From an uncultured Actinomycetes bacterium (GTDB taxonomy: Bacteria; Actinomycetota; UBA4738; HRBIN12): a DNA stretch of 64,000 nt. Location of the stretch: assembly GCA_963723855.1 (NCBI GenBank), contig CAVRSI010000015.1:195553-259552 (forward strand), in the 5' to 3' direction. The translations under genes and the position numbers were made by a program. Below the pieces are notes generated by a model that searched no databases, was not told the origin of the DNA, and worked only from the letters and a program-made list of their open reading frames with translations. Positions 3,901-20,338 of this stretch are shown piece after piece (within the stretch, counting starts at the first letter, position 1; each line of letters starts with the position of its first letter).

Positions 3901-3907
3901 CCGAGAC

Positions 3908-4268: not shown

Positions 4269-4277
4269 GCTTCGGTG

Positions 4278-6543
4278 CTACGACGCTGCCATCGACGAGG
4301 CATCGGCCTGCCGGACCACGTCCTCGAGCTCGGACTTGCGCGTCTTCGAGATGTAGATCATCACGCCGAGGATGACGACGCACACGGCGGCGACCGCGAT
4401 CCGGAACGCGACGTCCGTCGGCGTGCGTGACCACGAGCGGTGCGATCAACAGCGCGACCAGGTTCATCACCTTGATCAACGGGTTCAATGCCGGGCCGGC
4501 CGTGTCCTTGAACGGGTCGCCCACCGTGTCGCCGATGACGGCGGCCTTGTGCGCGTCGCTGCCCTTGCCCCCGAAGTGCCCTTCCTCGATGTACTTCTTG
4601 GCGTTGTCCCATGCGCCGCCCGAGTTCGACAGCATCACGGCGAGCAGCTGTCCGGTGAGGATCGCGCCGGCCAGGAACGCCCCGAGCGCTTCGCCCTTCA
4701 ACAGGAAGCCGGCGATGACGGGCGAGAGCACCGCCAGCAGGCCCGGCGTCATCAGCTCACGGAGCGAGGTCTTGGTGCAGATGTCCACGACACGGCCGTA
4801 GTCCGGCTTCTCCGAGTAGTCCATGATCCCCGGGTGATCGCGGAACTGGTTCCGCACCTCGACGACGACCTGCGCCGCCGCCCGGCCGACCGCGCGGATC
4901 GCGAGCGACGAGAACAGGAACGCGACCGACCCGCCGAGCAACAGCCCCACGAGCACGTCCGGGTGGTCGACCCGGATGCCGATGAAGTTGAAGCCGGCGC
5001 CGCGCAGCGCTTCCTCGAACGAACCGAACAGCGACGTCGCCGCGATCACGGCCGTCGCGATCGCGAGCCCCTTCGTGATGGCCTTCGTGGAGTTCCCGAT
5101 GGCGTCCAGGCCGCCCAGGATCTCGGCCGGCCTGCCCTCGAACTCCCCGGACATCTCCGCGATGCCCTGCGCGTTGTCCGAGATCGGCCCGAACGTGTCC
5201 ATGGACACGACGACCCCGACCGTGGTCAGCATCCCCATGCCGGTGAGCGCGATGAAGTACAGGCGCTCGGCGTTCGAGTGACCCAGCAGGAACGCGGCCA
5301 TGATGTCCCCGGCGATCACGATGATCGACCACACGGTCGATTCGAGCCCGACGGAGAATCCCGCCAGGACCGTCGTCGCCGCCCCGGTGACGGTGGACTC
5401 CGCGATCTCCTGCACGGGCCGGTGTTTCGTATCGGTGAAGTGCTGCGTGAGCACCTGGATGATGCTCGCCAGGATCAGCCCGAACGCCACGGCGAAGCCC
5501 GGCTTCCATGAGTGCATGTAGGAGTTCGAGATCACGAACACGGCCGCGGCTGAGATGACCGCGGAGATGAAGAACCCGCGGTTGATGGCCTTCATCCCGT
5601 GCTCCTCTTCACTCCGAGGAGCCACGGCGAGGATCCCGATGATCGAGGTGATCACGCCGACCGCTCGCACGAACAGCGGGAACATCACGCCGGCGATCGC
5701 GCCGATCGACGAGCCGCTGTACGCGGCCGCGCCCAGGATCAAGGAGGCAACCAGCGTGACCTCGTAGGACTCGAACAGGTCCGCCGCCATCCCGGCGCAG
5801 TCGCCCACGTTGTCGCCCACGTTGTCGGCGATCGTCGCGGCGTTGCGCGGATCGTCCTCGGGGATCCCCTGCTCGACCTTGCCGACCAGGTCGGCGCCCA
5901 CGTCGGCCGCCTTCGTGAAGATGCCGCCTCCCACCCGCATGAACATCGCGAGCAGGGCGCCGCCGAACCCGAAGCCCACCAGGACGCTCGTGGCGTCCTG
6001 CTTGTAGATGAGCAGGATCACCGTCGCGCCGAACAGGCCGAGTCCTACCGTGAACATCCCGGCCACGCCGCCGGCGCGGAAGGCGATCCGGACCGCGCGC
6101 CGCAGGCCCGACTCACGCGCGGCGTTCGCCGTCCGGACGTTCGCCCGGACCGCGAGCCACATCCCCACGTAACCGGTCGTGGCGCTGAACACCGCGCCCA
6201 GGATGAACGCGAGCGAGCGCCCGAACTTGATCGAGAACTCGGAGTGCACGGCGTCCTTCGGTGCCGGAAGGATGAAGAACAGGATCACGGTCAGGAGGCC
6301 CAGGAAGACCGCGAGCGTCCGGAACTGGCGCGAGAGGTAGGCCTTCGCCCCCTCCTGGATCGCCTTGGCGATCTCCTTCATCTTCTCGGTGCCCTCGGGA
6401 GCTCCGAGCACCTCGCGCACCAGGTAGTAGGCGAACAGCAGGGCGATCAGCGAGACGCCCATGGTCACCCACAGGAACGTGTTTTCGAACGACCCGAATA
6501 CCGCTCGGATCGGGCCACTCTCCTGGGCCAAGACGCCGTGCAT
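4278..6543 (-). CDS. hppA: Membrane H+-translocating pyrophosphatase, K+-independent type; one frame break near 4408-4424
   Basis: ORF 4132..6582 from [10 protein letters not shown] carries typical H+-PPase blocks ([72 protein letters not shown]). [10 protein letters not shown] has Lys at the position that is Ala in K+-dependent enzymes. After LVVTHAD the track frame turns Arg-rich; the shifted frame gives a final TM helix, [44 protein letters not shown], with its stop at 4278-4280. Confidence 0.9.
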
Positions 6544-6605
6544 CGAACCTCCTCGAGATGTGTGGGAGCGTGCCTCTCTCACCCGACCGGGCCGGGAACG
6601 CGTGA

Positions 6606-6660: not shown

Positions 6661-7023
6661 TCAGCGGGCGATCCAGTAGCCGAGCCCGGCGACCAAGAAC
6701 GCCGGCGGGCCGGAGAGCAACAGGTTCCAGCCCACGTAGCGCCATGCCCCGTCCTCGATCAGCTGCACCGTCTCGTACGTGAAGGTCGAGAACGTGGTGA
6801 ATCCGCCGATCACGCCGGTGCCGACGAACGTGAGCCATGTCGCCGAGACGTGCCCGGCGGTCGCGGCGCCGACCAGGAGTCCCAAGGCGAAGCTCCCAAC
6901 CAGATTCACCACCAGCGTGCTCAACGGGAACGGGCTGCGTTGGCGGGGAGCGATCACTCCCTCAACCGAATACCGAAGCAGCGCGCCCAACCCGCCACCG
7001 GCGGCAACGGAAAGCGCGATCAT
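6661..7023 (-). CDS. crcB: Fluoride channel CrcB/FluC (distal copy)
   Basis: 120 aa: MIALSVAAGGGLGALLRYSV...LSTLVVNLVGSFALGLL...TGVIGGFTTFSTFTYET. This is the CrcB signature with four TM segments. It has an ATGA overlap with the upstream DUF190 gene. Confidence 0.9.
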   Translation of the reverse strand: MIALSVAAGGGLGALLRYSVEGVIAPRQRSPFPLSTLVVNLVGSFALGLLVGAATAGHVSATWLTFVGTGVIGGFTTFSTFTYETVQLIEDGAWRYVGWNLLLSGPPAFLVAGLGYWIAR

Positions 7024-7361
7024 CCGGGATGGGTTCCCCGGTAGGAACGGACCTCCACCCGTTCGACGGTCACCAGCCCGTCGCCGACCATCGGATCGAT
7101 CTCCTCGATGAACGCGTCGATACGGTCGACCGTGTCGACGATCTCGATCAACAGCGGGAGGTCCTCTGAGAGACGAAGGATGCGTGCGGTGTGCAACCGC
7201 GAGCTGGCGCCGAATCCCTCGATCCCCCGGATCACGGTCGCTCCGGCAAGCCCCCGCTCGTGTGCGAGGTGGACGATCTCCTCGTACAGGGGTTTGTGCT
7301 GCCACGTATCCGATTCCCCGATGAAGATCCGCAACAGCTTGCATTCGCCTTCGAGCTTCAT
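7020..7361 (-). CDS. DUF190 (PII-like) protein, commonly linked to crcB
   Basis: 113 aa: MKLEGECKLLRIFIGESDTWQHKPLYEEIVHLAHERGLAGATVIRGIEGFGASSRLHTARILRLSEDLPLLIEIVD. It is sandwiched between two crcB genes, with ATGA overlaps on both sides. Confidence 0.8.
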   Translation of the reverse strand: MKLEGECKLLRIFIGESDTWQHKPLYEEIVHLAHERGLAGATVIRGIEGFGASSRLHTARILRLSEDLPLLIEIVDTVDRIDAFIEEIDPMVGDGLVTVERVEVRSYRGTHPG

Positions 7362-7732
7362 CGATCCTCCCTCGGCCTCGCCGGACCGAACCGTCCGGTC
7401 CAGATCCCGTAGACCCCCGCCGCCTGACCGGCGACCAGCGTGGCGAGCCAATACACGAGCGCCGTCCGTACATGGCCCGTATCGATGAGCTTGACCCCTT
7501 CCACGGCCATCGTCGAGAAGGTCGTGTAGGCGCCGAAGAACCCGATCGCGACCAAGGGGCGCATGAATCGGGTCGGCCTGAGCCGCTCGGAAAGCAACAC
7601 GGCGACGACGCCCAGCCCGAACGCCCCGGTGACGTTGACGAAGAACGTCGCCCACGGGAACGCCCCTTGATCGCCGGCGAACGCAAGGCCGATCCGCCAT
7701 CGGGCGAGCGCTCCCACGGCGCCGCCGACCAT
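7358..7732 (-). CDS. crcB: Fluoride channel CrcB/FluC (proximal copy); an alternative GTG start at 7765
   Basis: MVGGAVGALARWRIGLAF...WATFFVNVTGAFGLGVV...IGFFGAYTTFSTMAVEG matches CrcB. Paired crcB genes suggest a heterodimeric channel. Confidence 0.85.
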   Translation of the reverse strand: MVGGAVGALARWRIGLAFAGDQGAFPWATFFVNVTGAFGLGVVAVLLSERLRPTRFMRPLVAIGFFGAYTTFSTMAVEGVKLIDTGHVRTALVYWLATLVAGQAAGVYGIWTGRFGPARPREDR

Positions 7733-7829
7733 GACCGCCGCGGTCCGTGCATGCGAAGGCTTCACGATCGCCGAGCGTCTCAGACGGCCAGGTTCCATCG
7801 AGGCGATGCACCGATCGTGGCGCCTGTTC

Positions 7830-8366
7830 TCAAAGCTCGTCTCGCTTGCGGAAGAAGGCGACCGCAGCACGCCGCCGGCTCTCGTTCGAGACGTACTGAG
7901 GACGTTCGTAGGCGTCGACCGCAAGCGTCCCTTGCCAGTCGATGAACGGCTCGATGGTCGAGTGGTCGATCCCAGCCGCAGCCGCCTCTTCCTCGAGCCG
8001 ACGCAATTCGGTCCGCAAGCGTTGCGCCTCCAACTTCAGGAGCGGCACGATATCTCGGTCGAGCTTGATATACGCCAGGAACGCTTCGCGCTCAGCCTCC
8101 TCGGACACCGCGAACCGCGCACGGTTGGTCACGAGCAGGATGCGCAGCTCCGCAACTGACGCGGCGGATGCGGCGCACCGGATCCTCAGACCTTCGATCC
8201 TGGAACGACCGGTGTCACCGCTTCCGCTGAACGCGGGATCATCCTCAGCCACGATGCGGACCCCTCTGTCGCACGCTTCCGCGATCAACGCCTCCTGGGA
8301 AAGCTCCGGGCGTACCGCCTTCGCGCGGTCAAGATCGGCCTTGAAGATCCTCATGGGCTCGCTCAC
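7830..8366 (-). CDS. Hypothetical protein (178 aa from GTG 8366, or 174 aa from ATG 8354), second gene behind riboswitch A
   Basis: Clean ORF: (VSEP)MRIFKADLDRAKAVRPELSQEALIAEACDRGVRIVAEDD...LKLEAQRLRTELRRLEEEAAAAG...FFRKRDEL. GTG 8364-8366 overlaps the stop of the upstream gene (GTGA). I recognise no family. Confidence 0.6.
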   Translation of the reverse strand: MSEPMRIFKADLDRAKAVRPELSQEALIAEACDRGVRIVAEDDPAFSGSGDTGRSRIEGLRIRCAASAASVAELRILLVTNRARFAVSEEAEREAFLAYIKLDRDIVPLLKLEAQRLRTELRRLEEEAAAAGIDHSTIEPFIDWQGTLAVDAYERPQYVSNESRRRAAVAFFRKRDEL

Positions 8367-8830
8367 GTACTGCCCTCGCCGATCGCAGCGCGAAGGGCGA
8401 CGATCCGGGCTCGGTACGCGTCGATATCCCGTTGCAGACGGGGGAGCATCCAATCGACGGTCTGCTCGATCTCTCTTCGATACATCCGCGTGGACAATTC
8501 GCGCTTGCGGGTTTCCTTCGAACCATCGAACCAGGCGTAGCGGGTCACTGGGATCAGGGACTCCACAGATCTCACCACGTTCTCCAGGCGGTCGAGACGC
8601 TCTTCGTCCGTCGGGAGGCTGCTTAGCTCAGCCTCCACGACGATGTCGAAAAGGCCGGCTTCCAGGATGAACCGTCGCTCGGACGTGTCGATCGGCATGG
8701 CGGGCGACTCGGGCTCGGCGACGTCGATGAACTCCTCGGCGACGTATTCGTAGTCCAGGTCGCGCACCATCGGACGTAACGATCCGAGGTCGGGAGTGGG
8801 TCGCTTGAGCGAGTGATCCGATCCGGTCAT
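8363..8830 (-). CDS. Hypothetical acidic protein (155 aa), first gene behind riboswitch A
   Basis: ORF: MTGSDHSLKRPTPDLGSLRPMVRDLDYEYVAEEFIDVAEPES...RMYRREIEQTVDWMLPRLQRDIDAYRARIVALRAAIGEGST. The ATG lies only 2 nt after the GGAGG of the riboswitch platform, so the start could instead be the internal Met at 8770. I recognise no family. Confidence 0.6.
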   Translation of the reverse strand: MTGSDHSLKRPTPDLGSLRPMVRDLDYEYVAEEFIDVAEPESPAMPIDTSERRFILEAGLFDIVVEAELSSLPTDEERLDRLENVVRSVESLIPVTRYAWFDGSKETRKRELSTRMYRREIEQTVDWMLPRLQRDIDAYRARIVALRAAIGEGST

Positions 8831-8898
8831 GGCCTCCTACCTCGATCCGGTAGGAGCCATCAGCTCAGCGTGAGCGGGTTCGGCGAGCTCCATCGCCC
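8831..8898 (-). promoter_or_regulatory. Fluoride riboswitch (crcB motif), copy A: aptamer 8849-8898 plus an SD-sequestering helix
   Basis: Minus-strand RNA: GGGCGAUGGAGCUCGCCGAACCCGCUCACGCUGAGCUGAUGGCUCCUACC-GGAUCGA-GGUAGGAGGCC-AUG. Elements are P1 GGCG/CGCC, loop GAUGGAGCU, an AAC linker, P3 GCUCA/UGAGC, CUGAU, and a 3' GCUCC complementary to the loop GGAGC (pseudoknot), then CCUAC. CUCCUACC pairs with GGUAGGAG and masks the SD. A TAAGAT -10-like box is at 8910-8915. Confidence 0.8.
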
Positions 8899-8968
8899 TT
8901 CGACATCACATCTTAAGCCCTCAACCGGTTCGGCGCGTCCGTTCCGAGCTCGGTGTCAGCGGCATGAT

Positions 8969-10491
8969 CTACTGCCCGAGGTCAGTGGCCGTCCGCCCTT
9001 CGGTGTCCCGGGCGGTATCGAAGATGCGCCAGTAGGCGTCCTCGCCGAAGCTGGTTGGCAATGGTTCACCTTCGATGAGTCGGAACGTGCGCCGACCGTC
9101 GGGCTGCCGTTCGGCGCGAAGGAAGTAGGCAGTGTCCAGCTGCTGGATGTAGAAGCCGTGCGCGAGGTCGAACAGGTGCGTGACGAAGAAGACCTTGACG
9201 CCGGCATCTATCGATGCGCGGACGACTTGCCGGGCGATCTCGGAGCCCTCTCGCTCGTTCGTTGCCGAGAACGACTCGTTGCACAGCAAGAGGGAGTTCG
9301 GCGTGATCATGTCGGCGAGGTCGCTCATCCTCCCGAGCTCTTCGTCCAGCTTGCCGCTCTGCATCGTGACGTCTTCTCCTCGTTTGAAGTGCGTGAAGAC
9401 ACCGGTACAGACGTTGGCGCTGAAGGACTCCGCACCGACGAACATCCCGCTCTGCATCATCAGTTGCGCCGATCCGACGCTGCGCAGGAACGTCGACTTG
9501 CCGCCCTGGTTGGCGCCGGTGATCATGACGAGCAGCTTGCTCGCCGCTGTGACGTCATTGCCGACGACATCGTTCGCCACGCTCAGCGCCAGACAAACGT
9601 CGTACATCCGTCGAGCGGTGAGCGACGGGCGATCCTCAACGATGGGCATCGGGAAGGACGTCGGCTCTCCCTTCGCCGTCAGGCGTTCGTGCACATTCAC
9701 GCAGCCGATGTAGAAGCCGGTTTCCGCCCGCAACAGATCGAAGAAGCTGCGGATGTAATCGGCGGACTGAGCGAGCACGTTGGCAACCTGGTTGATCCTT
9801 TCGCTCGCAGGTCGCCCAGCGCCCTCGCCCCGCTCTCGTCGCGATCCGCGATCTGGAAGCTGAGGCCGGACCTGCCCCTGCGAGTGATCCGCTGCCTCCA
9901 GCTCAGCGTGGGGAGCGTCCGCAGCACGTAGTGGACGCCCTTGTTGCCCCTCCCGAGCTCGGCACTCATCAAGACGCCGCGCTCGAACCGCAACTCCTCG
10001 AGACGATCCTCGATGGTTCGGAAGTACGCGTCGTCCAGCTCCTCCGCGAGCATCGCGAAGAAACGCACGAAGCCATCGGACCGGAACCCTCCGGCGTGAT
10101 CGTCCGCGAGCCTGCGAAGCTGCCTGAGCGAACCCACGAACACCTCCATGGACTGGAGCGATCGCGTGAGGACGGCTTGCGGGGACATGAACGCGCCCCA
10201 GATCTTCTTCTCTTCCATGATCGCGCCGGCGGCGACCTGATAGATCTGTCTGACGACGGACGGTCGCTCCAGGCAGTCGGTCAGCACGTGCTGCCGGTAG
10301 ATGATCGCCTCCGGGCTCGTCAGGCTCGTCAGAACGGCCTTCCTCGCCACGTCGAACAGGAACGGGTCACCGGCCGCCATCGCGTTGAAGAGGATGTTCA
10401 GCTCGAGGTCTTGGGTGAGCGATCCTTCGTTCGACGGGAGTTCGCGCTGGAGGTCGAAGTCATCGTCCTCGTACATCAGGAAAGCCTTCAT
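8969..10491 (-). CDS. MutS-related ABC-type ATPase B (MutS domains III/V only); one frame break near 9796-9800
   Basis: The N-terminal half is ORF 9697..10491 (MKAFLMYEDDDFDLQRELPSNEGSLTQDLELNILFNAMAAGDPFLF...). The C-terminal half is ORF 8969..9778 (Walker A ITGANQGGKSTFLRSVG, LLLCNESFSATNEREG, Walker B/signature region). The two join as ...LRAKG-INQVANVLAQSADYIRSFF. There is no mismatch-binding domain I and no Smr/nuclease domain. Confidence 0.8.
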
Positions 10492-12020
10492 CGCACGTAT
10501 CCGCCTCCGCAGCGTCTCGTACGTAGGCCGTACTTCTCGGCGATGGCAGCGGCATAGGCAAGTCCGTCTGCGGGCTTCCTGGTGATCTTAACGTTCGCGT
10601 CGCGGGGTCATCGGGCACGACCGCGCTCACCATGCTGACCGTGACCTCGCTGAGGGAGGACAGCTCGTCCATGAAGGTCACGCACACGCACAACGAGTGC
10701 AACGCGATCAACCGATCCGTCACTTCCGTGCCGAGGAACACGGCGTCACGAAGCGAGGTCGAGTTGAAGCTCTCGTTCATGATGACGACGCTGTCGCTGG
10801 TCGCCAGGCGGAGGATTCGTGGAAGCTACCAGTTCATCCTCGAGCTTTCCGCGGAGGGTCGCGAGGTTCTCTTCCCGTTCGAAATGCGCGAAGACGTGAT
10901 CGGGCAGGGAGAGGTGCGCTGCCTTCGCAGGAACGAGACAACCGAGGTTGGCGAGATGATGCAGCTGGCCGAACATCCGTGCGAACGTCGTCTTCCCGCC
11001 TTGGTTCGGACCGGTAACGACGATGACGCGTTCCGGCTCCGTGAGATCGAACGAGTTGCACACGACCTCCGAACCCTGCGGGACGAGCTTGTTGGCGAGC
11101 GCGAGATCGAACGCATCGTGTGCGAACACGTGCTTCGCGCGAACGGACACGTGCGGGTAGCAGAACGGCAATCCGGCCGATCGGAACCGCTTGGCGTGCT
11201 CGAGATATGCCAGGTAGAACTGCACCTCCCGATCGAAGGTGCCGATGATCTGATCGAGGTAGTCACGGTGACGCACGCGATACTCGTCCAGCGCTCGCGA
11301 GACGTCGGGATACAGCTGTGCCACCAACTCGAACACGCGAGCTTCAACGGGATCCATGTCCAGCGAAGCAGTGAGTTTGACCCGGTGATCCCCCACGGCG
11401 CCGTGCTTGAACTTCGCGAACGTCTCCACGACCTCTGCGCTGAAGTCAGGCTCTCCCTCGTACCTGCTGACCGTGACCCGGTTCCCAGCGATGTGAACGC
11501 AGTACTTCACCGAAGCCAAGGCGTCCTTCAGCTCACGCGTTGCCGATATGAGTGACGTGAACGTCACGGACGCGGTGTAGTCCAGGATGTAGTCGCGGAA
11601 CGCCCGCAGGCCACGTGATGTCAATCCGAGAGATGCGAACCCTTCAGCCAGCGATCGAACCGCGTCGCAGTAGACCTCCACCGCCTCAACGAACCAACGC
11701 TTCTTCTGCGATGTGTAGTAGAGCTTCTCCACCTGAGCGAGATGCGCGCGCATCTCCTGCATGCGTCGCGAGAAGGCCTGGATGGCTTCCATGACCGCGC
11801 CATCCTCGAGGTCACGGAATACCTCATGCCGGTAGTACACGGCTTCGACGTCGCGCAACGGCGTGTAGAAGAAGGGCTTCAGTTGGTACTCGTCGCGACC
11901 GGCCGTTATCGACTCCACCACCTGATCGAGATTCAGGTCGCGGAAGAACCCGGGCTCTTCGAGCTCGTCGATCACGACGCTGCTCGGAGGCTGGTCGAAG
12001 AGGACGCTGTGGAACCGCAC
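10488..12020 (-). CDS. MutS-related ABC-type ATPase A (MutS domains III/V only); at least two frame breaks (10586-10594, 10818-10832); start revised to GTG 12020 (or 12032)
   Basis: ORF 10746..12164 contains (V)RFHSVLFDQPP...PGFFRDLNLDQVVESI and Walker A VTGPNQGGKTTFARMFG. It continues in ORF 10460..10780 (VIMNESFNSTSLRDA...VCVTFMDEL) and then in a third frame (KITRKPADGLAYAAAIAEKYGL...). The stop TGA 10488-10490 overlaps the ATG of ATPase B. The first 44-48 codons of the track ORF are occupied by riboswitch C and its leader. Confidence 0.75.
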
Positions 12021-12153
12021 GTCCCGACGCACCGGAGAGCCGTTCGGGTTCCGGAGCCTGCCGAGCTCCTGGGTCCCTCCGCCGGTGAAGGATCCTCGCT
12101 CGCTCGTGATACGCCTCCTTCCGCTGACGTCCGAAGCGCCCCGAGGGGCAGCC

Positions 12154-12202
12154 GTAGAAGCCATCAGCGTCGGAAGACGCGGTTCAGGCGAGCTTCATCG
12201 CC
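12154..12202 (-). promoter_or_regulatory. Fluoride riboswitch (crcB motif), copy C, aptamer; leader extends to about 12021
   Basis: Minus-strand RNA: GGCGAUGAAGCUCGCCUGAACCGCGUCUUCCGACGCUGAUGGCUUCUAC. Elements are P1 GGCG/CGCC, P3 GCGUC/GACGC, and loop GAAGC paired with 3' GCUUC. That pseudoknot carries a compensated double change relative to GGAGC/GCUCC in copies A and B. A TAACAT -10-like box lies at 12209-12214, 6 nt upstream. An SD-like GGAAGGAGG near 12114-12122 has no canonical start after it. The first in-frame GUGs are at 12032 and 12020. Confidence 0.75.
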
Positions 12203-12247
12203 ACCCCGATGTTAGCCCAGGAGGCGACGGACGGATGGCCTCGACCG

Positions 12248-12874
12248 CTATCCGTCTGACGTCGATCCCGCGAGCAGGCCGATGATGCGTCGCGCCGCGA
12301 GCGAGCGTTGTTCCGGGTCGTTGGCCGAGACTCGGGCGCGCGCGCTGAGCGCGAGGAGGGAGCGACGCTGCGTCGCGATGAGGAACCGCAGAGTGGACCG
12401 ACCGGGGCGAGTCCGACCGCCATGCTGAGATGCGGCCGGCAGATGCCGGTCGACACCTGATAGGCGGCGAGCACGTCGGGCTCGGCGAGCGCGTCGAAGA
12501 GCATCCCGAGCACCGACCGCCCTCGACGTTCTACCGCCGCGCATACGGGACACGCAGGTGGCCCCTCGGCCACACCCGCTCCGAAGTCCTCCGAGGCGGC
12601 CTGAGCAGATCCGCGAAAGGAGCCGCGCGCCCGCCGCCCCCAGATCCCCTCCTCGTCGGTCGAACACGCTCGCCCAGTGGGGCGCACAGAGTCCGCGGGA
12701 GTCGACGGTCTTGTCAATCGTCTCCTCTTCCCGGATGTTCGTGGTCGCGAGCCACGACAGGACCGCCCGTTCGGTCTCCCCCGCCAGCCGGCAGACGGGA
12801 CATCCGTCGCTACGAAGTGCGAGACCGAGCTCGGCCTCGAGGAGAATCTCGCGGAGAGGTTTCCGCTTCGTCAC
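12248..12874 (-). CDS. Hypothetical protein with two CPVC motifs (putative zinc-binding); two frame breaks (12398-12408, 12599-12614)
   Basis: Reconstructed from ORFs 12248..13243 and 12184..12717: VTKRKPLREILLEAELGLALRSDGCPVCRLAGETERAVLSWLATTNIREEETIDKTVDSRGLCAPHW...ARLLSRI / AQAASEDFGAGVAEGPPACPVCAAVERRGRSVLGMLFDALAEPDVLAAYQVSTGICRPHLSMAVGLAPV / RSTLRFLIATQRRSLLALSARARVSANDPEQRSLAARRIIGLLAGSTSDG. Its GTG start overlaps the phosphatase stop (GTGA). Confidence 0.55.
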   Translation of the reverse strand: MTKRKPLREILLEAELGLALRSDGCPVCRLAGETERAVLSWLATTNIREEETIDKTVDSRGLCAPHWASVFDRRGGDLGAAGARLLSRICSGRLGGLRSGCGRGATCVSRMRGGRTSRAVGARDALRRARRARRARRLSGVDRHLPAASQHGGRTRPGRSTLRFLIATQRRSLLALSARARVSANDPEQRSLAARRIIGLLAGSTSDG

Positions 12875-13504
12875 ATGCGCAGGGAGTCTTGTGCTCGACC
12901 TGCCTGTCGGAACAGGTCTTCGAGGACGGTCGGCACCTGCAGCCCTTCGTCGGTCGCCCGCAGCTCGATCACGGAGCCCGGCGACACGTCCGGGTCCCAA
13001 AACGCCGTTCCTTCGAGCCCCTTCAGACGCACGAGCACCAGCCGGATGAGGAGCTCGTGCGTGACCACGGCCACCGCTCGTTCGGGGTGCCGACCGCCTA
13101 TCGACTCCAGGGCCCTGAATGCACGTCGCTCGGCGGCCGCCATGCTCTCTCCGGAGGGGAAGGTCGCCGCCGCCGGGAACCGGAAGTAGAAGTCGAACGC
13201 TCTCGGCTCCGACTCCCTGATCGAGCGGCGTGCGAGCCACCACGAGCCCACGTCGACATCGGTCAGATCACTTCGATCGGCGTGGAACCACACCGACGGA
13301 ACGCCCGATGACGTCGGCGGTCTCCCGGGCGCGACGCCGGGGACTGGTGTAGATCGCGGAGACGTCCTCGAGAGCCAGACGCTCCGCCGCGCGCCGCGCA
13401 TCGTCCACGCCTTGCGCGGTCAGCGGGTCGTCCGTCTGTCCTTGCAGCCGACCTTCACTACTGAGAGCGGTCCGACCGGCTCGCACCACGAACAACGATG
13501 TCAT
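12871..13504 (-). CDS. Histidine-phosphatase (phosphoglycerate-mutase-like) fold protein with RAG in place of the catalytic RHG; one frame break near 13289-13306
   Basis: N-terminus from ORF 13268..13633: MTSLFVVRAGRTALSSEGRLQGQTDDPLTAQGVDDARRAAERLA...IYTSPRRRARETADVIG. C-terminus from ORF 12871..13401: VWFHADRSDLTDVDVGSWW...FRFPAAATFPSGESM...VAVVTHELLIRLVL. The codons read CGA GCC GGT, that is R-A-G. Confidence 0.7.
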
Positions 13505-13701
13505 CGGGAGCTCCCCCCATGTATGGCTTCCGCCGACGGCACATCCGGTGCGGTACGGATCGACATCGCCACGTGATCCCAGTCGATGCGGAGCAGCTCG
13601 ACCGGTCTGACGCGCGGGACGAACCGATTCCAATCCACGTCGACATCTTCGATCCGTCGCTCGCGCAGCGCAGGCGTCAGGTGCGGATAGGCGGAGGTCA
13701 T
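13501..13701 (-). CDS. Possible separate 66-aa ORF between the dynamin-like and phosphatase genes
   Basis: MTSAYPHLTPALRERRIEDVDVDWNRFVPRVRPVELLRIDWDHVAMSIRTAPDVPSAEAIHGGSSR. GGAGG lies 4 nt upstream of the ATG at 13699-13701. As sequenced it is in frame with the dynamin ORF. Removing one C from the C5 run at about 13712-13716 would end the dynamin gene with an ATGA overlap onto this ATG. Confidence 0.35.
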   Translation of the reverse strand: MTSAYPHLTPALRERRIEDVDVDWNRFVPRVRPVELLRIDWDHVAMSIRTAPDVPSAEAIHGGSSR

Positions 13702-15483
13702 GGCGCCTCCATCACCACCATGACGGGGGCCGGTCGCGGCCGTTTGGAACGCCTCACGGAGCTGGTCGAGCCGGCGTCGATCGACCCGCGCATCTTCCTT
13801 GGCTCGCAGGGCGTCTTCGGCCGACCGCTGCCGATCGCGTTCGGAGCGTTCGAATCCCCGCACCGAGGCTCTCGATGGTCGCTTCCAGGCTCCGGTCCAA
13901 TGCCGATCCAAGGTCACGGCGACTCCGGTCGAGCCGCTGCACGAAGTCCCAGTGAAGGCGTCCCATGTGCTTGTCGACGAGCGAAGGAGTCGCTCCCTCA
14001 AGGTCGCGCAGGAACAGGCGCCGCGCCGTCTCTCGCGGCAGGAACCGGCGAACGTCCGGCAGGATCGACTCGATGATCGATGGAGGTTCGAAGAAGCTGA
14101 AACTGAACGGGGTCCGGAAGACAGCTCGACGAGATGGCCCTCGGAAACGAGCTGGATCCCGAGGATCTCGCCGCACAGCCGGACGGTCTCCCGCTCGGTA
14201 CCGTCCGCCTCCTCGACGAAACGGGCCGTTGCGTCCCGGAACGCGGCGGAGAGCGTCTGCTCCTCGAGTCCGCGCCAGTGGCCGATATCGGTGCGGAGCG
14301 CCTCCCTCAAGAACACGAACCCCTCGTCGTCCCGCGCGATGCGCCGGACGTCCTCAAGCGAGGCAACGTGTTCCTCGACGGCAGACGTCAGGCGGGTCTC
14401 CTCCTCGGAACGAAGCTGTTCCAGATCCTGCTCGAGACGGGACACGAGCGCCTCGGCCTCCTGATCGAGAAGAGCGTGCATGTCGCGTTGTCTCGATCGA
14501 GCCTGGGCGAATACCTCCTGCATGCGCCGACGAGCCTCTTCCAGCTCCTGGACGGGGAGATCGAGCGCCCGCTCCTGCACCTCCAGCGCGTTGCGCTCGT
14601 CGTCCACCAGCCGCAGCGCACGCCCGGCCACGGAGGCCAGGATGGCCCGCCCTTTCTCGTCCAGCAGGAACGTCCGGAAATCACGTTCGAACGCGGGGAG
14701 CCCCGAAGCCTCCAACTCGCGGTCGTCTCCGGCGAGCTTCGCCCGGAGCGCCCGGCGGGCGCTCAAGGGATAGACAACGACGTCCTGCCCGACGGCTTCT
14801 TCGATAACCCGATGTGTGAACGCGATGGACTCGTCACGGTCGAGCCCCGACAGGTAGTCGATCTTGTTCAGGACGAAGAAGAGACGCGCCGTCTCCCCGC
14901 GAACTCCTCGAGGAACGCACGCTCCGTCTCGGAGAATTGGCGGGTCCGCAGAGGTGAGGAAGACGGCGGCGTCGGATTCGGAGAGGAAGGCGCGCGCCGC
15001 CTCGGTGTTGCGCTGGTAAACGCTGCCGACGCCGGGCGTATCGACTAGGAACACCCCGTCACGCAGATCTTCCGACGGGTACGACACCACGGCCCTCGCG
15101 ACCCCCAGCGCATTGTCCGGGTTGCCTCGCTCGGTCACGTACGTAGCGAGATCCGTCACGTCGACGTCCTCTTCGCGGCCGTCGAGATAGCCGATCCGAG
15201 CTCGGATCTCCCTCCCCCACGTCACCGCCGTGACGATCGAGGTGAGTGGCACGACGGCGGAAGGAAGCACGTCTGCGCCGAGGAGTGCATCCACGAACGT
15301 GGTCTTGCCCCGTTTGAACTCGCCGAAGACCACGACGTTGAATCGGTTCTCGACGAGCTTCTTGTCGAGGGCCCGTGCAGCGTCTGTGACGGCCCGGCTC
15401 TCGCGTCGGTCGGCGAACTCGGCGAGATCGTCGAGCGCCACGAGAAGCCTGTCCCGCTCCTCCGCGTAGGTTCGTTGACCCAT
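13699..15483 (-). CDS. Bacterial dynamin-like GTPase (BDLP family); four frame breaks inferred (13855-13862, 14125-14140, and a compensating pair at 14893-14900 / 14932-14938); 3' end uncertain
   Basis: ORF 13501..15483 has G1 VVVFGEFKRGKTTFVDALLG, G3 FLVDTPGVGS and G4 FFVLNKIDYL, followed by long coiled-coil-like stalk sequence. The middle of the C-terminal part is in ORF 13754..14176 (FRTPFSFSFFEPPSIIESILPDVRRFLPRETARRLFLRDLEGATPSLVDKHMGRLHWDFVQRLDRS...). It is the first gene after riboswitch B. Confidence 0.8.
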
Positions 15484-15560
15484 GGAAAAGCTCCTACCTC
15501 TGCATCCAGGTAGGAGCTATCAGCTCGCCGGGGCGAGCGGTTAGGCGAGCTCCATCGCCT
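15484..15560 (-). promoter_or_regulatory. Fluoride riboswitch (crcB motif), copy B: aptamer 15509-15560 plus an SD-sequestering, terminator-like helix at 15484-15520
   Basis: Minus-strand RNA: AGGCGAUGGAGCUCGCCUAACCGCUCGCCCCGGCGAGCUGAUAGCUCCUACC-UGGAUGCAG-AGGUAGGAGC-UUUUCC-AUG. Elements are P1 GGCG/CGCC, loop GAUGGAGCU, an AAC linker, P3 GCUCGC/GCGAGC, CUGAU, and a 3' AGCUCC complementary to the loop GGAGCU, then CCUAC. GCUCCUACCU pairs perfectly (10 bp) with AGGUAGGAGC and masks the SD AGGAG. A TATACT -10-like box lies at 15568-15573, 7 nt upstream. Confidence 0.85.
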
Positions 15561-15649
15561 CACCCGAAGTATAGGGGAGCGGAGGAGCGAACCTTCCCAA
15601 GGATCGCCAACGACGATGGTCGACTCTCCCCGCTCCGTAAACTCGCAGG

Positions 15650-16922
15650 ATGAGCTATCAGATCGATTCGATACGTGCGCTGGAGAGTCCTGGATTCCCG
15701 AGGCAGACCGACGCTGCACGTGACCCTGGGACTCGTCGGAGGCGCGATCGGGACGGCCGGCGTGCCATCCGGCGCGTCGACCGGGACCCGCGAGGCCGTC
15801 GAGAGGCGGGACGGCGACCAGGAGCGGTTCGAAGGCGCGGGCGTCCAGCGGGCCGTCATGACCGTCGAAGGGGAGATCGCGGACGCCGTGACCGGCCGCG
15901 ACTGGGAGTCTCTGGCGGAACTCGATCATGCCCTGATCGGGTTGGACGCAACGCCTAACAAGGAACGGCTCGGCGCGAACGCCATCGTCGGTGTCTCCAT
16001 GGCGGCGGCTCGCGCGATGGCGGCGGCCGACGAGCGTCCGCTCTACGAGTGGCTGGCTCCGTCGGGATACGCGCCACGTCTTCCCGTCCCGCACTTCAAC
16101 GTCATCAACGGCGGGGCGCACGCCGGCAACCAGCTCGCGTTCCAGGAGTTCATGATCGCGCCGATCGGCGCGCCGAGTTTCCGCGAAGCGCTGCGGGCCG
16201 GCGCTGAGACCTACGCCATGCTCCGGCACGGACTGAAGGAGGCCGGCTACGCGACCGGTCTGGGCGATGAAGGCGGCTTCGCTCCGGAGATCTCGGAGCC
16301 GGAGGAGGCGTTGGACCTCCTCGTCGAGGCCATCCGGGCCGCCGGATACGAACCCGGCCGGGACTCGGTCGCGATCGCGCTCGATCCAGCGGCGTCGGGC
16401 TTCCGTGCGGAAGACGGCATGTACGAGGTGACCGAGGCACGGCTGACCTCGGCGGAGATGACCGAGCGCTACGCGCAGATGGTGGACCGCTATCCGGTGT
16501 GGTCGATCGAGGACGGGCTCGCGGAAGACGATCCGGAAGGGTGGACCGAGTTGACCCAACGCCTCGGCGACCGGATACAGATCATCGGGGACGATAATTT
16601 CGTCACGAACCCGGGCCTCATACGGGAGGCCATCGCGCATGGCATCGGCAACGCTGCGCTCATCAAGCTGAACCAGATCGGGACCGTCACGGAAACCCTC
16701 GAAGCGATCGAGGTCAGCCGATCGGGCGGGTACGCGCAGATGATCTCGCACCGGTCCGGAGAGACATGCGATCCATTCATCGCCGACCTGGCGGTCGCCG
16801 TGGGCTGTGGCCAGATCAAGTCCGGGGCCCCGGCTCGAGGCGAGCGACTCGCGAAGTACAACCGCCTTCTCGAGATCGAGCTGGGGCTGGACCGTCCGAC
16901 GTTCGGCCTCGTACCCAAGTGA
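15650..16922 (+). CDS. eno: Enolase, divergent copy (SHRSGETCD instead of SHRSGETED); one extra base near 15683-15687
   Basis: ORF 15675..16922 has VLDSRGRPTL, VPSGASTGTREA, GDEGGFAP, LIKLNQIGTVTET, SHRSGETCDPFIADLAV and RGERLAKYNRLLEIE. The canonical N-terminus MSYQIDSIRALE is in ORF 15650..15958, one frame off. It joins as ...IRALE-VLDSRG. Confidence 0.9.
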
Positions 16923-17413
16923 GCTTCGAAGGGTCCGCGCTTTGGCGCGTCCGGCAGAAGATCGGGCACGACCTCCTGCTGTGGCCGGGCGCGACCGTGC
17001 TCCTGGAAGACGCGGACGGACGGATCCTCCTGGGTCTGCGGCGCGACAACGACGAGTGGACGATGCCCGGAGGCGGTGCCGAGGAAGGCGGGAGCTTCGC
17101 CGCGACGGCGCTCGACGAGTTGCGGGAAGAGGTGGGGCTCGAGGCCGACGCAGCGGACCTGGTCGCGTTCGCATGCGTCTCGGAGTCCGCCGACCACCTG
17201 ATCCCGTACCCGAACGGAGACCTCACCCACTACTTCGGCATCTGGTTCGTGCTCCGCCGGTGGCGGGGCGAGCCGGAGGCCGATGGCGACGAGCTCGTCG
17301 AGCTCGGGTGGTTCTCCCGCGACGCGCTCCCCGAGCCGTTGATGCACAGCTCGGCCGTGGCGCTCCGGCACTACACGGCGTACCTGGAGTCAGGCGTCTT
17401 CCAGATCGGCTGA
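16919..17413 (+). CDS. NUDIX hydrolase
   Basis: The Nudix box is GGGAEEGGSFAATALDELREEVGL. Its GTG start overlaps the eno stop (GTGA at 16919-16922). Confidence 0.75.
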   Translation: MSFEGSALWRVRQKIGHDLLLWPGATVLLEDADGRILLGLRRDNDEWTMPGGGAEEGGSFAATALDELREEVGLEADAADLVAFACVSESADHLIPYPNGDLTHYFGIWFVLRRWRGEPEADGDELVELGWFSRDALPEPLMHSSAVALRHYTAYLESGVFQIG

Positions 17414-18793
17414 GGGTGGTGACTCGGCGGCCTCGACGGGCCTGGTCCCCGATGTGCGGCGCAACCATACGAAACCGATAGGTCCCGCCAGGATCGCCGT
17501 CAGCAGGATCCCGATCTTCGCTTGCTCGACCGCTCCGGGCTGCCCGACGAAGGCCACATCAGCCACGAACAACGAAACCGTGAACGCGACGCCAGCGGCC
17601 GCGGCCACGGCGAATATGCTTCCGAGTCGTGCCCCGTCGGGTAGCCGCCCGATCCCGAGCCGAACCGTGAGCCACACCCCTCCCCCGATCCCCACGATCT
17701 TTCCCACCACGTGGCCGCTCACCACCCCAAGCGTCACCGGACTCCTGAGCGCATCGGCGACCGCATCGACGGATAGTGGTATGCCCGCGTTCGCCAACGC
17801 GAACAGCGGAAGCACCACGATCGTCGCCATAGGGAGGAGCAGGTGCTCCATCCTTGCGAGCGGCGACACAGCCTCTTTCGAGAGCCAAGCGAGCTGCAAC
17901 CACCAACGCGCATCGGCGTCGGGCGGGTCGGGTTCGTCAACGGTCTCATCGGCGACACGGATCGCTTCCTCGCGCACGTGGCGGGGTCGCTGGAGCGGGA
18001 ATGCCGGCGTGAGCAGCCCCACCACCACGCCCGCGAGGGCAGGCTCCACGCCCGAGGCATCGAGCGACAACCACATCGCCACTCCCAACGCCGCGAAGAT
18101 CGCCATCGAACGAACGCCGAGACGTCGGATCAGCACCATCGCGCCGGCCACGCCGATCGCCAGCAGGAGTGCTGGGAACCGGATGAGGGACGGATAGAAC
18201 ACCGCGATCACGACGACGGTGAGGATGTCGTCCACGATCGCCAGCGTGAGCACGAAGGCCCGAAGGCCGACCGGAGCGTTCCGGATGGCGAGCGCGAGGA
18301 TCCCCAGCGTGAACGCGATATCGGTCGGCATCGCGATCCCCCACCCCCGCGAACCAGCCCCGCCTCTGTTCACGAGCAGATAGATCAGAGCGGGCACGAC
18401 CATCCCTGCGACCGCAGCGATGACGGGGAGCGCTGCCGCGCGCACATCCCGCAGTTCACCGATCAATACCTCGCGCTTGATCTCCAGCCCGACGACGAGG
18501 AAGAAGAACGACATCAATCCGTCGTTCACCCACGCTCGCAGGCTGTCGTTGACTGTCCAGCTGCCCACGCCGAGAGAGATCGGGGTGCGCCATAGCCGCA
18601 CGTAGCTTTCGGCGAGCGGCGAGTTCGCCCATACCAATGCAACGACCGCCGCGGCGACGAGCAGGATCCCGCCTGACGTCGAGGACTCGAGGAACTCCTG
18701 AAGTGGGCGCACGACGCGGCGCGGCACAGCACGGTTCGACTGCGCCCACGAGGGCCGGATCGCGGGGCCGGGTCTGGGGGTGTCGTTCGCCAT
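17390..18793 (-). CDS. nhaA: Na+/H+ antiporter NhaA (copy 1)
   Basis: 467 aa with ...LVWANSPLAESYVRLW...NDGLMSFFFLVVGLEIKREVLIGEL...VPALIYLLVN...AIVDDI..., typical NhaA. Confidence 0.85.
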   Translation of the reverse strand: MANDTPRPGPAIRPSWAQSNRAVPRRVVRPLQEFLESSTSGGILLVAAAVVALVWANSPLAESYVRLWRTPISLGVGSWTVNDSLRAWVNDGLMSFFFLVVGLEIKREVLIGELRDVRAAALPVIAAVAGMVVPALIYLLVNRGGAGSRGWGIAMPTDIAFTLGILALAIRNAPVGLRAFVLTLAIVDDILTVVVIAVFYPSLIRFPALLLAIGVAGAMVLIRRLGVRSMAIFAALGVAMWLSLDASGVEPALAGVVVGLLTPAFPLQRPRHVREEAIRVADETVDEPDPPDADARWWLQLAWLSKEAVSPLARMEHLLLPMATIVVLPLFALANAGIPLSVDAVADALRSPVTLGVVSGHVVGKIVGIGGGVWLTVRLGIGRLPDGARLGSIFAVAAAAGVAFTVSLFVADVAFVGQPGAVEQAKIGILLTAILAGPIGFVWLRRTSGTRPVEAAESPPSADLEDA

Positions 18794-18819
18794 CGTGGAT
18801 CTAGGCGCCCCGACGGTGA

Positions 18820-20211
18820 TCAGCGCGGTCCATCAAGGCCGGCTCTCGCCTCACGGCGACCGATCTGGAGGAAGAAGAATCCGAAGACACCCGACAGGAG
18901 CGAAGCGGCGAACACACCGATCTTCGCTTCGGCGAGGCTCGCGGATCCCTCGCCGAACGCGAGCTCCGCGATGAAGAGCGCCACGGTGAACCCGATCCCC
19001 GCCACCTGGCCTACCCCCACCAGATCTCGGGAGGTGGCTCCGGTCGGGAGGGATCCGTGGCCCGCTCGCGTGGCGATCGACGCAGCCCCCCACACGCCGA
19101 CCAGCTTTCCGACGACCAACCCGAGGACGATCCCGAGGGTGACGCGGCTCCCCATCGCATCTCGCAGGACGCTCGCAGAGAGTCGGATCCCCGAGTTCGC
19201 CAGAGCGAACAGCGGCAAGACGACGAAGCTCGTCCATGGCAGGAGCGTGTGCTCGACCCGCGCGAGGGGGGACACAGCCTCCCTGGACAGCCACGAGAGT
19301 CGCATCCAGGAGTCGGCGTCCGCGTCGGGAGGACGGGGATCGTCGACGGTTTCGTCGGCCGTGCGCCGGGCCTCCTCGCTCACGTGTCGAGGGCGCTGGA
19401 ACGGCCTGACCGGGGTGAGGAGGCCGAGGATCACCCCGGCAAGGGTCGCTTGCACTCCCGATTCGAACATGGCGAACCACAAGCAGGTTCCGAGCACCAG
19501 ATACACAGCAGTTGCACGCACGTGGATCCGCTGGAGGCCGACGATGGCGAGGATGATGACCACGGCGGCCGCGATGGCCGGCCACTCGACGCCCTCCGAA
19601 TAGAACAGGGCGATGATGACGATCGCCCCGATGTCGTCGACGATCGCGAGGGTGAGCAGGAAGGGTCTGAGGTCCGTCGGTGCATGCCTCGCAGCAAGCG
19701 TCAGAACCGCTAGCGCGATCGCGATGTCCGTCGCCATGGGAACGCCCCAACCACGGACGTCTGTCGTGCCTCGATTCACTCCCACGTAGATGAGGGCCGG
19801 CACCACCATCCCGCCGATCGCTCCGACGATCGGGACGGACGCTGCGCGCCAATGCTGCAGCTCCCCGGTCACCAGCTCGCGTTTGATCTCCAGACCGACC
19901 ACGACGAAGAACAAGGCCATCAGACCGTCCGTCACCGCGTGGCGGAGGTCTTCCGATATGTGACGAGCGCCGACATGCAAGGAGATGGGGGTCGTCCACA
20001 GACGCTCATACGCATCCCGCCATGGTGAGTTCGCCCACACGATCGCGACGATCACCGCCAAGAGCAGGACGACCGCGCTGGCCGACGAGGTTTGCAGGTA
20101 TGCCTGGAGCGGGCGGAGCACGATCCGGGGGACGGGACGCTCGGACTGCGCCCACGGAAGGTTGATGCCGGATCCGGCACGCTCGTCGTCTTGCCTGCTG
20201 GTCGGTGCCAT
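18820..20211 (-). CDS. nhaA: Na+/H+ antiporter NhaA (copy 2, tandem paralogue); the ORF extends to 20247
   Basis: IVWANSPWRDAYERLW...TDGLMALFFVVVGLEIKRELVTGEL...AIVDDIGAIVIIALFY. It lies 26 nt upstream of copy 1 on the same strand. Confidence 0.85.
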   Translation of the reverse strand: MAPTSRQDDERAGSGINLPWAQSERPVPRIVLRPLQAYLQTSSASAVVLLLAVIVAIVWANSPWRDAYERLWTTPISLHVGARHISEDLRHAVTDGLMALFFVVVGLEIKRELVTGELQHWRAASVPIVGAIGGMVVPALIYVGVNRGTTDVRGWGVPMATDIAIALAVLTLAARHAPTDLRPFLLTLAIVDDIGAIVIIALFYSEGVEWPAIAAAVVIILAIVGLQRIHVRATAVYLVLGTCLWFAMFESGVQATLAGVILGLLTPVRPFQRPRHVSEEARRTADETVDDPRPPDADADSWMRLSWLSREAVSPLARVEHTLLPWTSFVVLPLFALANSGIRLSASVLRDAMGSRVTLGIVLGLVVGKLVGVWGAASIATRAGHGSLPTGATSRDLVGVGQVAGIGFTVALFIAELAFGEGSASLAEAKIGVFAASLLSGVFGFFFLQIGRREARAGLDGPR

Positions 20212-20338
20212 GCGTCGCACTCCTGCCGACCAGACTTCCCGGCGCACCTTCGGACCGGCACATGCTACCCCGGGTCACATCCCTTCACGAGTTCCTCACA
20301 CGGGTTCGGTTGTTGCTCAACGAGAGCGCCCGTACGCT

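Follow-up and report, generated by a model that had tools for sequence, protein, structure and literature searches.

A 64-kb stretch of DNA from an uncultured actinomycete (contig CAVRSI010000015.1; the whole stretch is called the window here) carries on its minus strand three fluoride riboswitches of the crcB motif class, RF01734, each heading its own set of tightly packed genes. Set A leads into the fluoride channel genes crcB-DUF190-crcB, while set B begins with a dynamin-like GTPase (BDLP) and set C consists of two MutS-domain-V ATPases. An earlier note on this sequence had proposed that the uncharacterised genes of the block belong to an extended fluoride response, and that proposal is upheld by other genomes, where the families concerned repeatedly stand linked to fluoride aptamers. 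Its 9-kb block stands as three riboswitch-headed sets but not as a single 9-kb operon, the units being separately gated. Taken as a whole, the block is likely to be a fluoride-inducible stress island made of three independently gated units, and the dynamin-like GTPase very likely belongs to the fluoride regulon. In what follows, L and P numbers denote related loci or contigs and proteins that were compared with the window. The features of the three sets are as follows.

15568-15573, minus strand: TATACT, a -10-like box 7 nt ahead of aptamer B (ATACT is kept in L001)
15504..15568, minus strand: aptamer B, RF01734 at 49.0 bits (69.4 bits with the covariance model built here)
15489..15518, minus strand: expression platform B, an 11-bp hairpin of the pseudoknot 3' strand AGCUCCUACC with GGUAGGAGCU
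13698..15483, minus strand: BDLP, dynamin-like GTPase, Dynamin_N at 5e-23; 3' end approximate, family length about 590 aa
13501..13701, minus strand: 66-aa open reading frame (ORF) after BDLP, with an ATGA overlap with the next gene
12871..13504, minus strand: His_Phos_1-fold protein with RAG for RHG; Pfam match split across two frames
12248..12874, minus strand: double-CPVC protein, DUF6062, about 208 aa; orthologues carry PF19538
12209-12214, minus strand: TAACAT box 6 nt ahead of aptamer C
12148..12211, minus strand: aptamer C, RF01734 at 45.2 bits; pseudoknot GAAGC:GCUUC
12021..12147, minus strand: conserved set C leader, 128 nt, from an alignment of four relatives and its fold
10488..12020, minus strand: first MutS-domain-V ATPase (MutS1), MutS_V; orthologues 513-530 aa; probable GTG start at 12020
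8969..10491, minus strand: second MutS-domain-V ATPase, MutS_V at 4e-18; orthologues 507-512 aa; ATGA overlap with the first
8910-8915, minus strand: TAAGAT box 11 nt ahead of aptamer A
8844..8906, minus strand: aptamer A, RF01734 at 52.6 bits
8829..8860, minus strand: expression platform A, a hairpin of GGCUCCUACC with GGUAGGAGGCC
8363..8830, minus strand: p155, 155 aa, intact; no family match
7830..8366, minus strand: p178, 174/178 aa, intact, all-helical; no family match
7358..7732, minus strand: crcB (Fluc) subunit 1, CRCB at 7e-24; 124 aa, 97% identical to L001
7020..7361, minus strand: DUF190 protein, PF02641 at 1e-41; 100% identical to L001
6661..7023, minus strand: crcB (Fluc) subunit 2, CRCB at 1e-23; 120 aa, 98% identical to L001

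The gene content that the earlier note had given for the three sets agrees with these family matches (Dynamin_N, His_Phos_1, MutS_V, CRCB, DUF190). In set A the two CRCB subunits flank DUF190 with 4-nt overlaps, and by domain and gene arrangement the crcB pair can be assigned to a Fluc fluoride channel.

The three aptamers are genuine, intact fluoride riboswitches. An Rfam cmscan of the whole window returned three RF01734 matches, all on the minus strand, all spanning the full model (1-64) and scoring 45-53 bits against a gathering score of 34 bits; beyond these, nothing in the window rose above gathering score. The crcB motifs of the earlier note lie inside these matches, and the P3 helices (GCUCGC/GCGAGC, GCGUC/GACGC and GCUCA/UGAGC), pseudoknots and TAnnnT boxes it described can be read directly in the sequence. 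The pseudoknot is GGAGC:GCUCC in two copies, with the compensatory GAAGC:GCUUC in copy C, and every pair of the P1 and P3 helices and of the pseudoknot that joins the P1 loop to the 3' tail can form in all three. The mutual covariation claimed for them extends to an alignment of 16 Rfam-verified aptamers from the window and related loci, in which 92% of pairing cells are filled overall and 100% in the pseudoknot. Changes on both sides occur in 7 of 13 pairs (3 of 5 for the pseudoknot), 0 of 500 shuffles matched the observed covariation score and no slid register came near it. L001 has the same three aptamers at syntenic sites, and aptamers B and C have syntenic copies in L001, L002 and L007. 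A scan of the window for consensus sigma-70 promoters and terminators gave nothing above chance, so the -10 boxes remain a pattern argument only.

How might these aptamers act on the genes behind them? In the predicted folds of sets A and B the pseudoknot 3' strand lies in an 11-12-bp hairpin with the Shine-Dalgarno sequence, 2-7 nt before the start codon. In platform B, GGUAGGAGCU contains this sequence, placed 7 nt upstream of the start codon ATG at 15483, and in platform A, GGUAGGAGGCC covers it and extends to the ATG at 8830. Both sequestering hairpins are present in the minimum-energy and the centroid folds, which points to sets A and B being translational ON switches. Each of the three units would start at its own -10 box just ahead of the aptamer. 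In the absence of fluoride, the 3' pseudoknot strand GCUCCUACC of sets A and B would pair with the Shine-Dalgarno sequence GGUAGGAG and keep translation off, and binding of the Mg-fluoride complex would lock the pseudoknot and free the Shine-Dalgarno sequence for translation of the first gene. Translational coupling at the ATGA and GTGA overlaps would then carry reading into the later genes of the set. The set C leader is predicted, though weakly, to pair with segments of its aptamer, GCUGAUG with CGUCAGC and CGCGUCUUCC with GGAAGGAGGCG. An AUG inside aptamer C was considered as the MutS1 start and rejected: the window and L007 have it in frame, L001 and L002 do not.

For BDLP the linkage was examined from gene to aptamer. 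Thousands of proteins of about 590 aa are homologous to the GTPase reconstructed from the window. A forward scan over one genome per GTDB species, queried with an alignment of 15 homologues, returned 80 loci in at least four phyla: Actinomycetota, Nitrospirota/Thermodesulfovibrionia, Thermodesulfobacteriota and a few Proteobacteria. In six out of seven diverse loci run against Rfam, a fluoride aptamer stood immediately upstream of the GTPase and on its strand. A covariance model built from the 16 verified aptamers was then run over 81 related BDLP loci. The nearest upstream aptamer lies within 300 nt of the BDLP start, on the same strand, in 66 of them, at 301-3500 nt in 10 and beyond 3.5 kb in one; four have no upstream aptamer. 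The recurrent linkage on which the earlier note had staked its proposal is thus found for BDLP at up to 300 nt in 66/81 loci and at up to 3.5 kb in 76/81. Where the distance is 301-3500 nt the intervening genes are typically crcB-DUF190-DUF190, which indicates longer operons.

The seventh diverse locus, L025, carries a recognisable aptamer that scores below the Rfam threshold, and its pseudoknot strand is part of a textbook terminator. This shows that the Rfam threshold misses some real members. The aptamer (L025 5705-5790, in a Candidatus Aquicultor metagenome-assembled genome, MAG) has CUAAUAG in place of CUGAUGA. Platforms therefore differ by lineage, a terminator in L025 against Shine-Dalgarno sequestration in the window. 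That the link between BDLP and aptamer is kept across different platforms and phyla argues for selection on the link itself.

The gene following BDLP depends on the phylum, as seen in L013, L028, L048, L051, L053, L066 and others. In Nitrospirota it encodes a 128-aa protein with a zinc ribbon and HEAT-like repeats (8 loci), and in Thermodesulfobacteriota a 95-aa protein (11 loci); further followers are an MFS transporter (11 loci) and a small HAD-like hydrolase (5 loci). L003 has two fluoride aptamers back to back on opposite strands (9815-9986, with 33 nt between them), one driving p155-p178 and the other driving BDLP in the opposite direction.

The reverse survey went from aptamer to genes. 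A degenerate pattern of conserved aptamer nucleotides was run over metagenome contigs and returned 80 loci, with 97 aptamer matches at E up to 0.001 under the covariance model built here, and the downstream 4.5 kb was scored against ten family profiles. The earlier note had suggested tabulating the genes downstream of fluoride aptamers, and in this tabulation both BDLP and the MutS-V pair recur:

crcB after the aptamer: 25/80 loci
BDLP after the aptamer: 10/80 loci
MutS-V pair after the aptamer: 5/80 loci
enolase after the aptamer: 2/80 loci
His_Phos after the aptamer: 2/80 loci

BDLP is second to crcB among the ten scorable families; with many short contigs and a panel that omits CLC(F) and other families, these counts are minimum values and the ranking is rough. 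Several operon forms stand behind aptamers above the Rfam threshold, namely aptamer-BDLP-p155-p178 (L149), aptamer-BDLP-crcB-DUF190-crcB (L100), aptamer-enolase-BDLP (L109) and aptamer-MutS-MutS-BDLP (L139 and L159).

By sequence and predicted structure the window BDLP is a real dynamin-like GTPase. An intact orthologue (P0001, 591 aa) is 86% identical to it, the motifs GEFKRGKT, DTPGVGS and NKxD are invariant in 15 relatives, and the profile matches the Nostoc BDLP 2j68 at 7e-39. In the AlphaFold2 model (predicted local distance difference test, pLDDT, 74) residues 262-441 and 500-554 form long helices that correspond to the neck and trunk. Foldseek aligns it over its full length, 559-657 columns, to 2j68, 2j69 and 6j72/6j73 with E from 1e-16 to 3e-18. 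Between the two trunk helices lies a conserved hydrophobic segment, TRFSYxFFExPTILE, modelled at pLDDT <50.

In the window and at least nine other loci the MutS-V genes come as a fixed pair of paralogues, one of about 520 and the other of about 510 aa, whose stop and start codons overlap. The pair has its own aptamer in L161, L103, L203, L204 and L205 and shares an operon with BDLP in L139 and L159, and intact orthologues of MutS1 occur in L001, L002 and L202-L205. The association with fluoride is old: as the earlier note stated, mutS was listed with the crcB motif in its first description (Weinberg et al. 2010, PMC2864571; also PMC7266159). Residues 298-487 match MutS, MSH and MutS2 chains at 1e-15 to 3e-17, over the ATPase domain only, and the closest solved relative is MutS2. 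Neither the mismatch-binding domain I, the connector nor a C-terminal Smr domain was detected with Pfam and NCBIfam, and the NCBIfam equivalog scores fall far below their cut-offs (77 against 480 and 55 against 400). Identification of the pair as MutS1 or MutS2 was rejected on these grounds, with no domain outside V, a length of about 510-530 aa and equivalog scores that are too low. The fixed pair, the missing mismatch-binding and Smr domains and the operon shared with BDLP make a classical role in DNA repair doubtful.

For p155, one of the two small proteins of set A, Pfam, NCBIfam and PADLOC gave no match, and a similarity to apolipoprotein A-I helices was not significant (E about 0.07) and was not used. 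A word-based search for p155 reached close relatives only. Homologues of p155 stand in 8 BDLP loci and in L149 and L204, always under aptamer control. The family of p178 is rare, with 43 representative clusters among 1.84 billion proteins, and its AlphaFold2 model (pLDDT 89) is all-helical; no structural or sequence match to it was found. Homologues of p155 and p178 are confined to Actinomycetota, always together and next to BDLP. They stand directly after BDLP in L004-L006, L149 and L204, behind their own aptamer divergent from that of BDLP in L003, and at the head of the crcB operon in the window.

The phosphatase-fold protein of set B has lost the histidine of its RHG motif. The two halves of the window gene match His_Phos_1 at 67 and 65 bits in Pfam, and the L001 orthologue matches the cobC, PspA and GpmB models, all below the equivalog cut-offs. 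The motif reads VRAGRT in the window, L001, L002 and L007, VRAGWT in L203 and L204 and VRTGRT in L202. In all lineages examined, the DUF6062-paired copy carries RAG or RTG, and RHG is kept by a second paralogue and by the Thermodesulfobacteriota orthologues. The histidine-less protein is probably a non-catalytic binding partner. Its neighbour, the double-CPVC protein, scores 24.2 bits against a PF19538 threshold of 27 in the window, where the middle part is out of frame; the intact L002 orthologue reaches 41.3 bits, and orthologues P0174-P0187 are annotated PF19538. In L202-L205 DUF6062 is always preceded by the histidine-less phosphatase-fold gene with a 4-nt overlap, and the pair stands behind its own aptamer in L203-L205 (Rfam-confirmed in L203). 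DUF6062 in general was rejected as a fluoride family: the distant member P0190 lies in an unrelated context and has no aptamer.

The second His_Phos gene, with canonical RHG, lies between p178 and crcB in L001 (11270-11860), L002 (17861-18398) and L007 (17771-18313); the corresponding interval of the window, 7733-7829, lacks it.

The recurrence that the earlier note had asked about is found for the MutS pair, for p155/p178 and for the phosphatase-CPVC pair. The 66-aa ORF follows BDLP in five close relatives only, one of them an Illumina contig. Gene calls include it in L001, at 66 aa, and in the Illumina assembly L202, at 72 aa, and it is conserved in L002 and L007, and a Pfam/NCBIfam-type search gave no family match.

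In L204 the model matches ahead of four modules within 6.5 kb. Rfam confirms the aptamers before the MutS pair and before BDLP-p142-p178-HisPhos2; the match before the histidine-less phosphatase-DUF6062 pair is partial, and the enolase candidate is below the Rfam gathering score. Four modules within 6.5 kb suggest that three in 7 kb, as in the window, are the norm for this clade.

Genes already associated with fluoride riboswitches include Fluc/CLC(F), Na+/H+ antiporters, pyrophosphatase, enolase, HAD phosphatases and formate hydrogen lyase (PMC11139923). The links of crcB, DUF190, MutS, enolase, pyrophosphatase and NhaA to fluoride are already known. The window shares with the classical operons the RF01734 aptamer, a pseudoknot strand that competes with a platform helix (ON logic) and the core effectors, which are the Fluc pair and DUF190; in both, genes for enolase, pyrophosphatase and Na+/H+ antiporters are close by. 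These classical operons are the crcB and eriC(F) units reportedly described by Baker et al. 2012 and reviewed in PMC11139923. The window differs from them in having three aptamers (elsewhere four) within 6-7 kb, each gating a separate module, and in the modules themselves: the dynamin-like GTPase, the two novel helical proteins and the pseudo-phosphatase/DUF6062 pair. These new modules are absent from the associated-gene lists of PMC11139923, PMC7266159 and PMC2864571. Within the collection of papers searched, no publication joined dynamin with the fluoride riboswitch, or relevantly with crcB, and the link between BDLP and fluoride appears to be unreported.

Other known relatives throw light on individual modules. 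IniA is part of the mycobacterial iniBAC operon, which is stress-induced and responds to cell-wall inhibitors. IniA (6j72/6j73) and Nostoc BDLP (2j68/2j69) have the same Dynamin_N GTPase, helical neck and trunk as the window BDLP, which is only 17-20% identical to them and is a single gene, with no IniB or IniC. The partners of its clade vary by phylum (p155/p178, the 95-aa protein or the zinc-ribbon/HEAT protein) and differ from those of IniA, and its inducing signal would be fluoride sensed through RNA, as opposed to cell-wall inhibitors for iniBAC. The mutS genes of Weinberg 2010 (PMC2864571) are likewise MutS-domain-V ATPases directly behind the aptamer; what sets the window apart is the fixed, overlapping two-paralogue pair, which in two loci lies in a BDLP operon. 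The phosphatase-fold protein shares its fold and most motifs with histidine phosphatase branch 1 (cofactor-dependent phosphoglycerate mutase, PspA, CobC), from which the DUF6062-paired copy differs in having lost the nucleophilic histidine. Versions with the canonical RHG come after BDLP in ten Thermodesulfobacteriota loci and after p178 in the window's relatives, in keeping with the known link between phosphatases and fluoride riboswitches (PMC11139923).

A model in which fluoride turns on several kinds of protein at once could account for this arrangement. Once switched on, the block would supply a channel of two CrcB/Fluc subunits with DUF190, probably together with the H+-pyrophosphatase; a BDLP module, whose partners vary by lineage (the p155/p178 pair or the 66-aa protein); a probably inactive histidine-phosphatase-fold protein and its DUF6062 partner, which is of a zinc-binding type; and the two-gene MutS-domain-V ATPase pair. 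What would a dynamin do under fluoride stress? IniA and DynA remodel or repair the membrane under other envelope stresses. By analogy, BDLP may use GTP to remodel or repair the cytoplasmic membrane when fluoride or hydrogen fluoride (HF) stresses the cell, a role that we put forward tentatively.

A sharper form of the earlier note's speculation on enzymes poisoned by fluoride would give the two NTPase families a different role, neither at the envelope nor on DNA, in which their dimer-activated sites bind metal-fluoride complexes. Dynamins and MutS are P-loop NTPases that act as dimers, and MutS2 acts on collided ribosomes. BDLP and MutS-V could then be sinks or sensors for complexes of nucleoside diphosphates (NDP) with metal fluorides (MgF3-, AlF4-), or rescuers of trapped GTPases and ATPases, although this seems unlikely. 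The idea draws on the dimeric action common to both families, on their shared operons behind one aptamer in L139 and L159, on MutS2, the collided-ribosome factor, as nearest solved relative of the MutS-V proteins, and on the Mg-phosphate chemistry handled by most island products (family matches; PMC11139923). Under it, the BDLP clade and the MutS-V pair would serve specifically to protect nucleotide hydrolases from poisoning by metal fluorides, which we regard as improbable; they would bind NDP-MgF3/AlF4 or strip trapped enzymes from their targets, for example stalled translation factors, an equally doubtful proposition. It is pure inference, and sequestration in proportion to the amount of protein would be weak against sub-millimolar fluoride. 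BDLP moreover retains a full stalk with a conserved hydrophobic tip, which favours a role at the membrane over that of a soluble sink. If the metal-fluoride idea were true, fluoride tolerance would have a protein-rescue arm besides export.

Several observations count against the fluoride island with a membrane-acting dynamin. Fluoride induction of the three units in this organism is deduced from the RNA alone. The set C leader folds with z = -1.7, which is weak and statistically not distinctive, and its start codon is uncertain (the GTG at 12020 is the best candidate). In the remaining five of the 81 BDLP loci, an unfiltered aptamer search found none nearby. No transmembrane segment is present in BDLP, and its putative membrane tip (449-498) is of low confidence in the model. 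As to novelty, this GTPase may have been listed before, in Baker et al. 2012 or its supplements. Lastly, sets B and C contain about ten frame changes which, if real, would mean that the copies of this organism are dead.

Could sets B and C then be decaying pseudogenes, their riboswitches relics, with only the crcB unit working here? The roughly ten frame changes fall within the 6.5 kb that sets B and C occupy; the 2.2 kb of set A have none. In BDLP there are about four (near 14934, 14903, 14110 and 13845), in the His_Phos_1-fold gene one (near 13250), in MutS1 at least three (near 10820, 10590 and 10510) and in the second MutS-V gene one (near 9830, by comparison with intact L002). In the window, neither the boundary between BDLP and the 66-aa ORF nor the beginning of MutS1 can be placed exactly. 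Sets B and C also lie below the flanks in third-codon-position GC and in nucleotide identity to L001 (88% for the block against 93%). Indels are denser in the block than in the flanks. The ratio of nonsynonymous to synonymous substitution (dN/dS) against L001, L002 and L007 is 0.25-0.6. Values of 0.12-0.35 for the pyrophosphatase itself show the estimate to be too noisy, since indels in both assemblies let off-frame segments align. A homopolymer check, in which most indels were single bases outside long runs, was uninformative.

The frame changes are nevertheless private to the window: L001 and L002 have unbroken BDLP, His_Phos and MutS1 genes, and in the Illumina-type contigs L202-L205 every gene is intact, with 4-nt overlaps. 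Several indels are compensating pairs that keep the ORF open. The CPVC/DUF6062 ORF is open from start to natural stop while some 75 codons in its middle, the second CPVC among them, are in another frame, which implies two compensating indels. The aptamers and platforms are perfectly preserved. Genes outside the block are affected as well: the H+-pyrophosphatase changes frame near 4410, with its true C-terminus in another frame (window 3900-4450, minus strand), and the OB-fold-like gene after it is likewise frame-changed, so that indels are not confined to the riboswitch block. In the sister assembly L007, the nearest relative, enolase is in four pieces. The contig_N record names of L001, L002 and L007 (L002 and L007 being MFD MAGs) suggest long-read assemblies. 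With changes private to the window, intact orthologues, broken housekeeping genes and relatives of long-read type, the frame changes are most likely long-read assembly indels. Divergence of the block may raise consensus errors where related strains co-occur. Decay of sets B and C is thus quite unlikely, and the preferred reading remains a working island of three units. That the dynamin-like gene is an Eleos (LeoA/LeoBC) anti-phage system merely near fluoride genes is highly implausible and was rejected, as its weak PADLOC matches (LeoA 52 bits, LeoBC 48 bits) are limited to GTPase regions shared by the dynamin family, it is a single gene and not a LeoA and LeoBC pair, no partner protein has a PADLOC match and the fluoride aptamer directly precedes BDLP in most of the 81 loci.

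Fluoride riboswitches have chiefly guided the study of how cells withstand fluoride, since the genes they control are presumed to counter its toxicity. To the accepted list of exporters, pH and phosphate homeostasis and glycolysis can be added, from a survey of about 170 other loci, a dynamin-like GTPase, found behind the aptamer in most species that encode it, across at least four phyla, and behind roughly one in eight aptamers in an environmental sample. Its linkage would imply a target of toxicity missing from current models, most plausibly the membrane or envelope. A physiological signal would also be assigned to four families without a function (p155, p178, the DUF6062 subgroup and the histidine-less phosphatase fold), and the long-unexplained mutS association would be recast as a fixed two-gene ATPase pair able to share the BDLP operon. 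The result may also bear on the engineering of strains that tolerate fluoride and degrade or synthesise organofluorine compounds.

The genes flanking the block are as follows:

4278..6582, minus strand: membrane H+-pyrophosphatase, H_PPase at 3e-254, 80 nt downstream of crcB
15675..17413, plus strand: enolase (15675-16922) and NUDIX (16766-17413), divergent from set B and without an aptamer of their own
17390..20247, minus strand: two tandem full-length NhaA Na+/H+ antiporter genes, Na_H_antiport_1 at 2e-129 and 7e-140; no aptamer

The H+-pyrophosphatase is on the same strand as crcB and is possibly co-transcribed with it. It has the same position in L001, L002 and L007. L002 lacks crcB-DUF190-crcB at this site, and its p155 operon continues directly into the H+-pyrophosphatase. 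Enolase lies inside the BDLP operons of L013, L032, L043, L066, L069, L071 and L109. On contig L202, an Rfam-confirmed fluoride aptamer (5162-5237) heads two small genes of 112 and 160 aa (4232-5241, minus strand), whose products consist of repeated (V/I)GRFSxGQ motifs and match no Pfam family; this may be a further part of the fluoride regulon that has so far gone undescribed.

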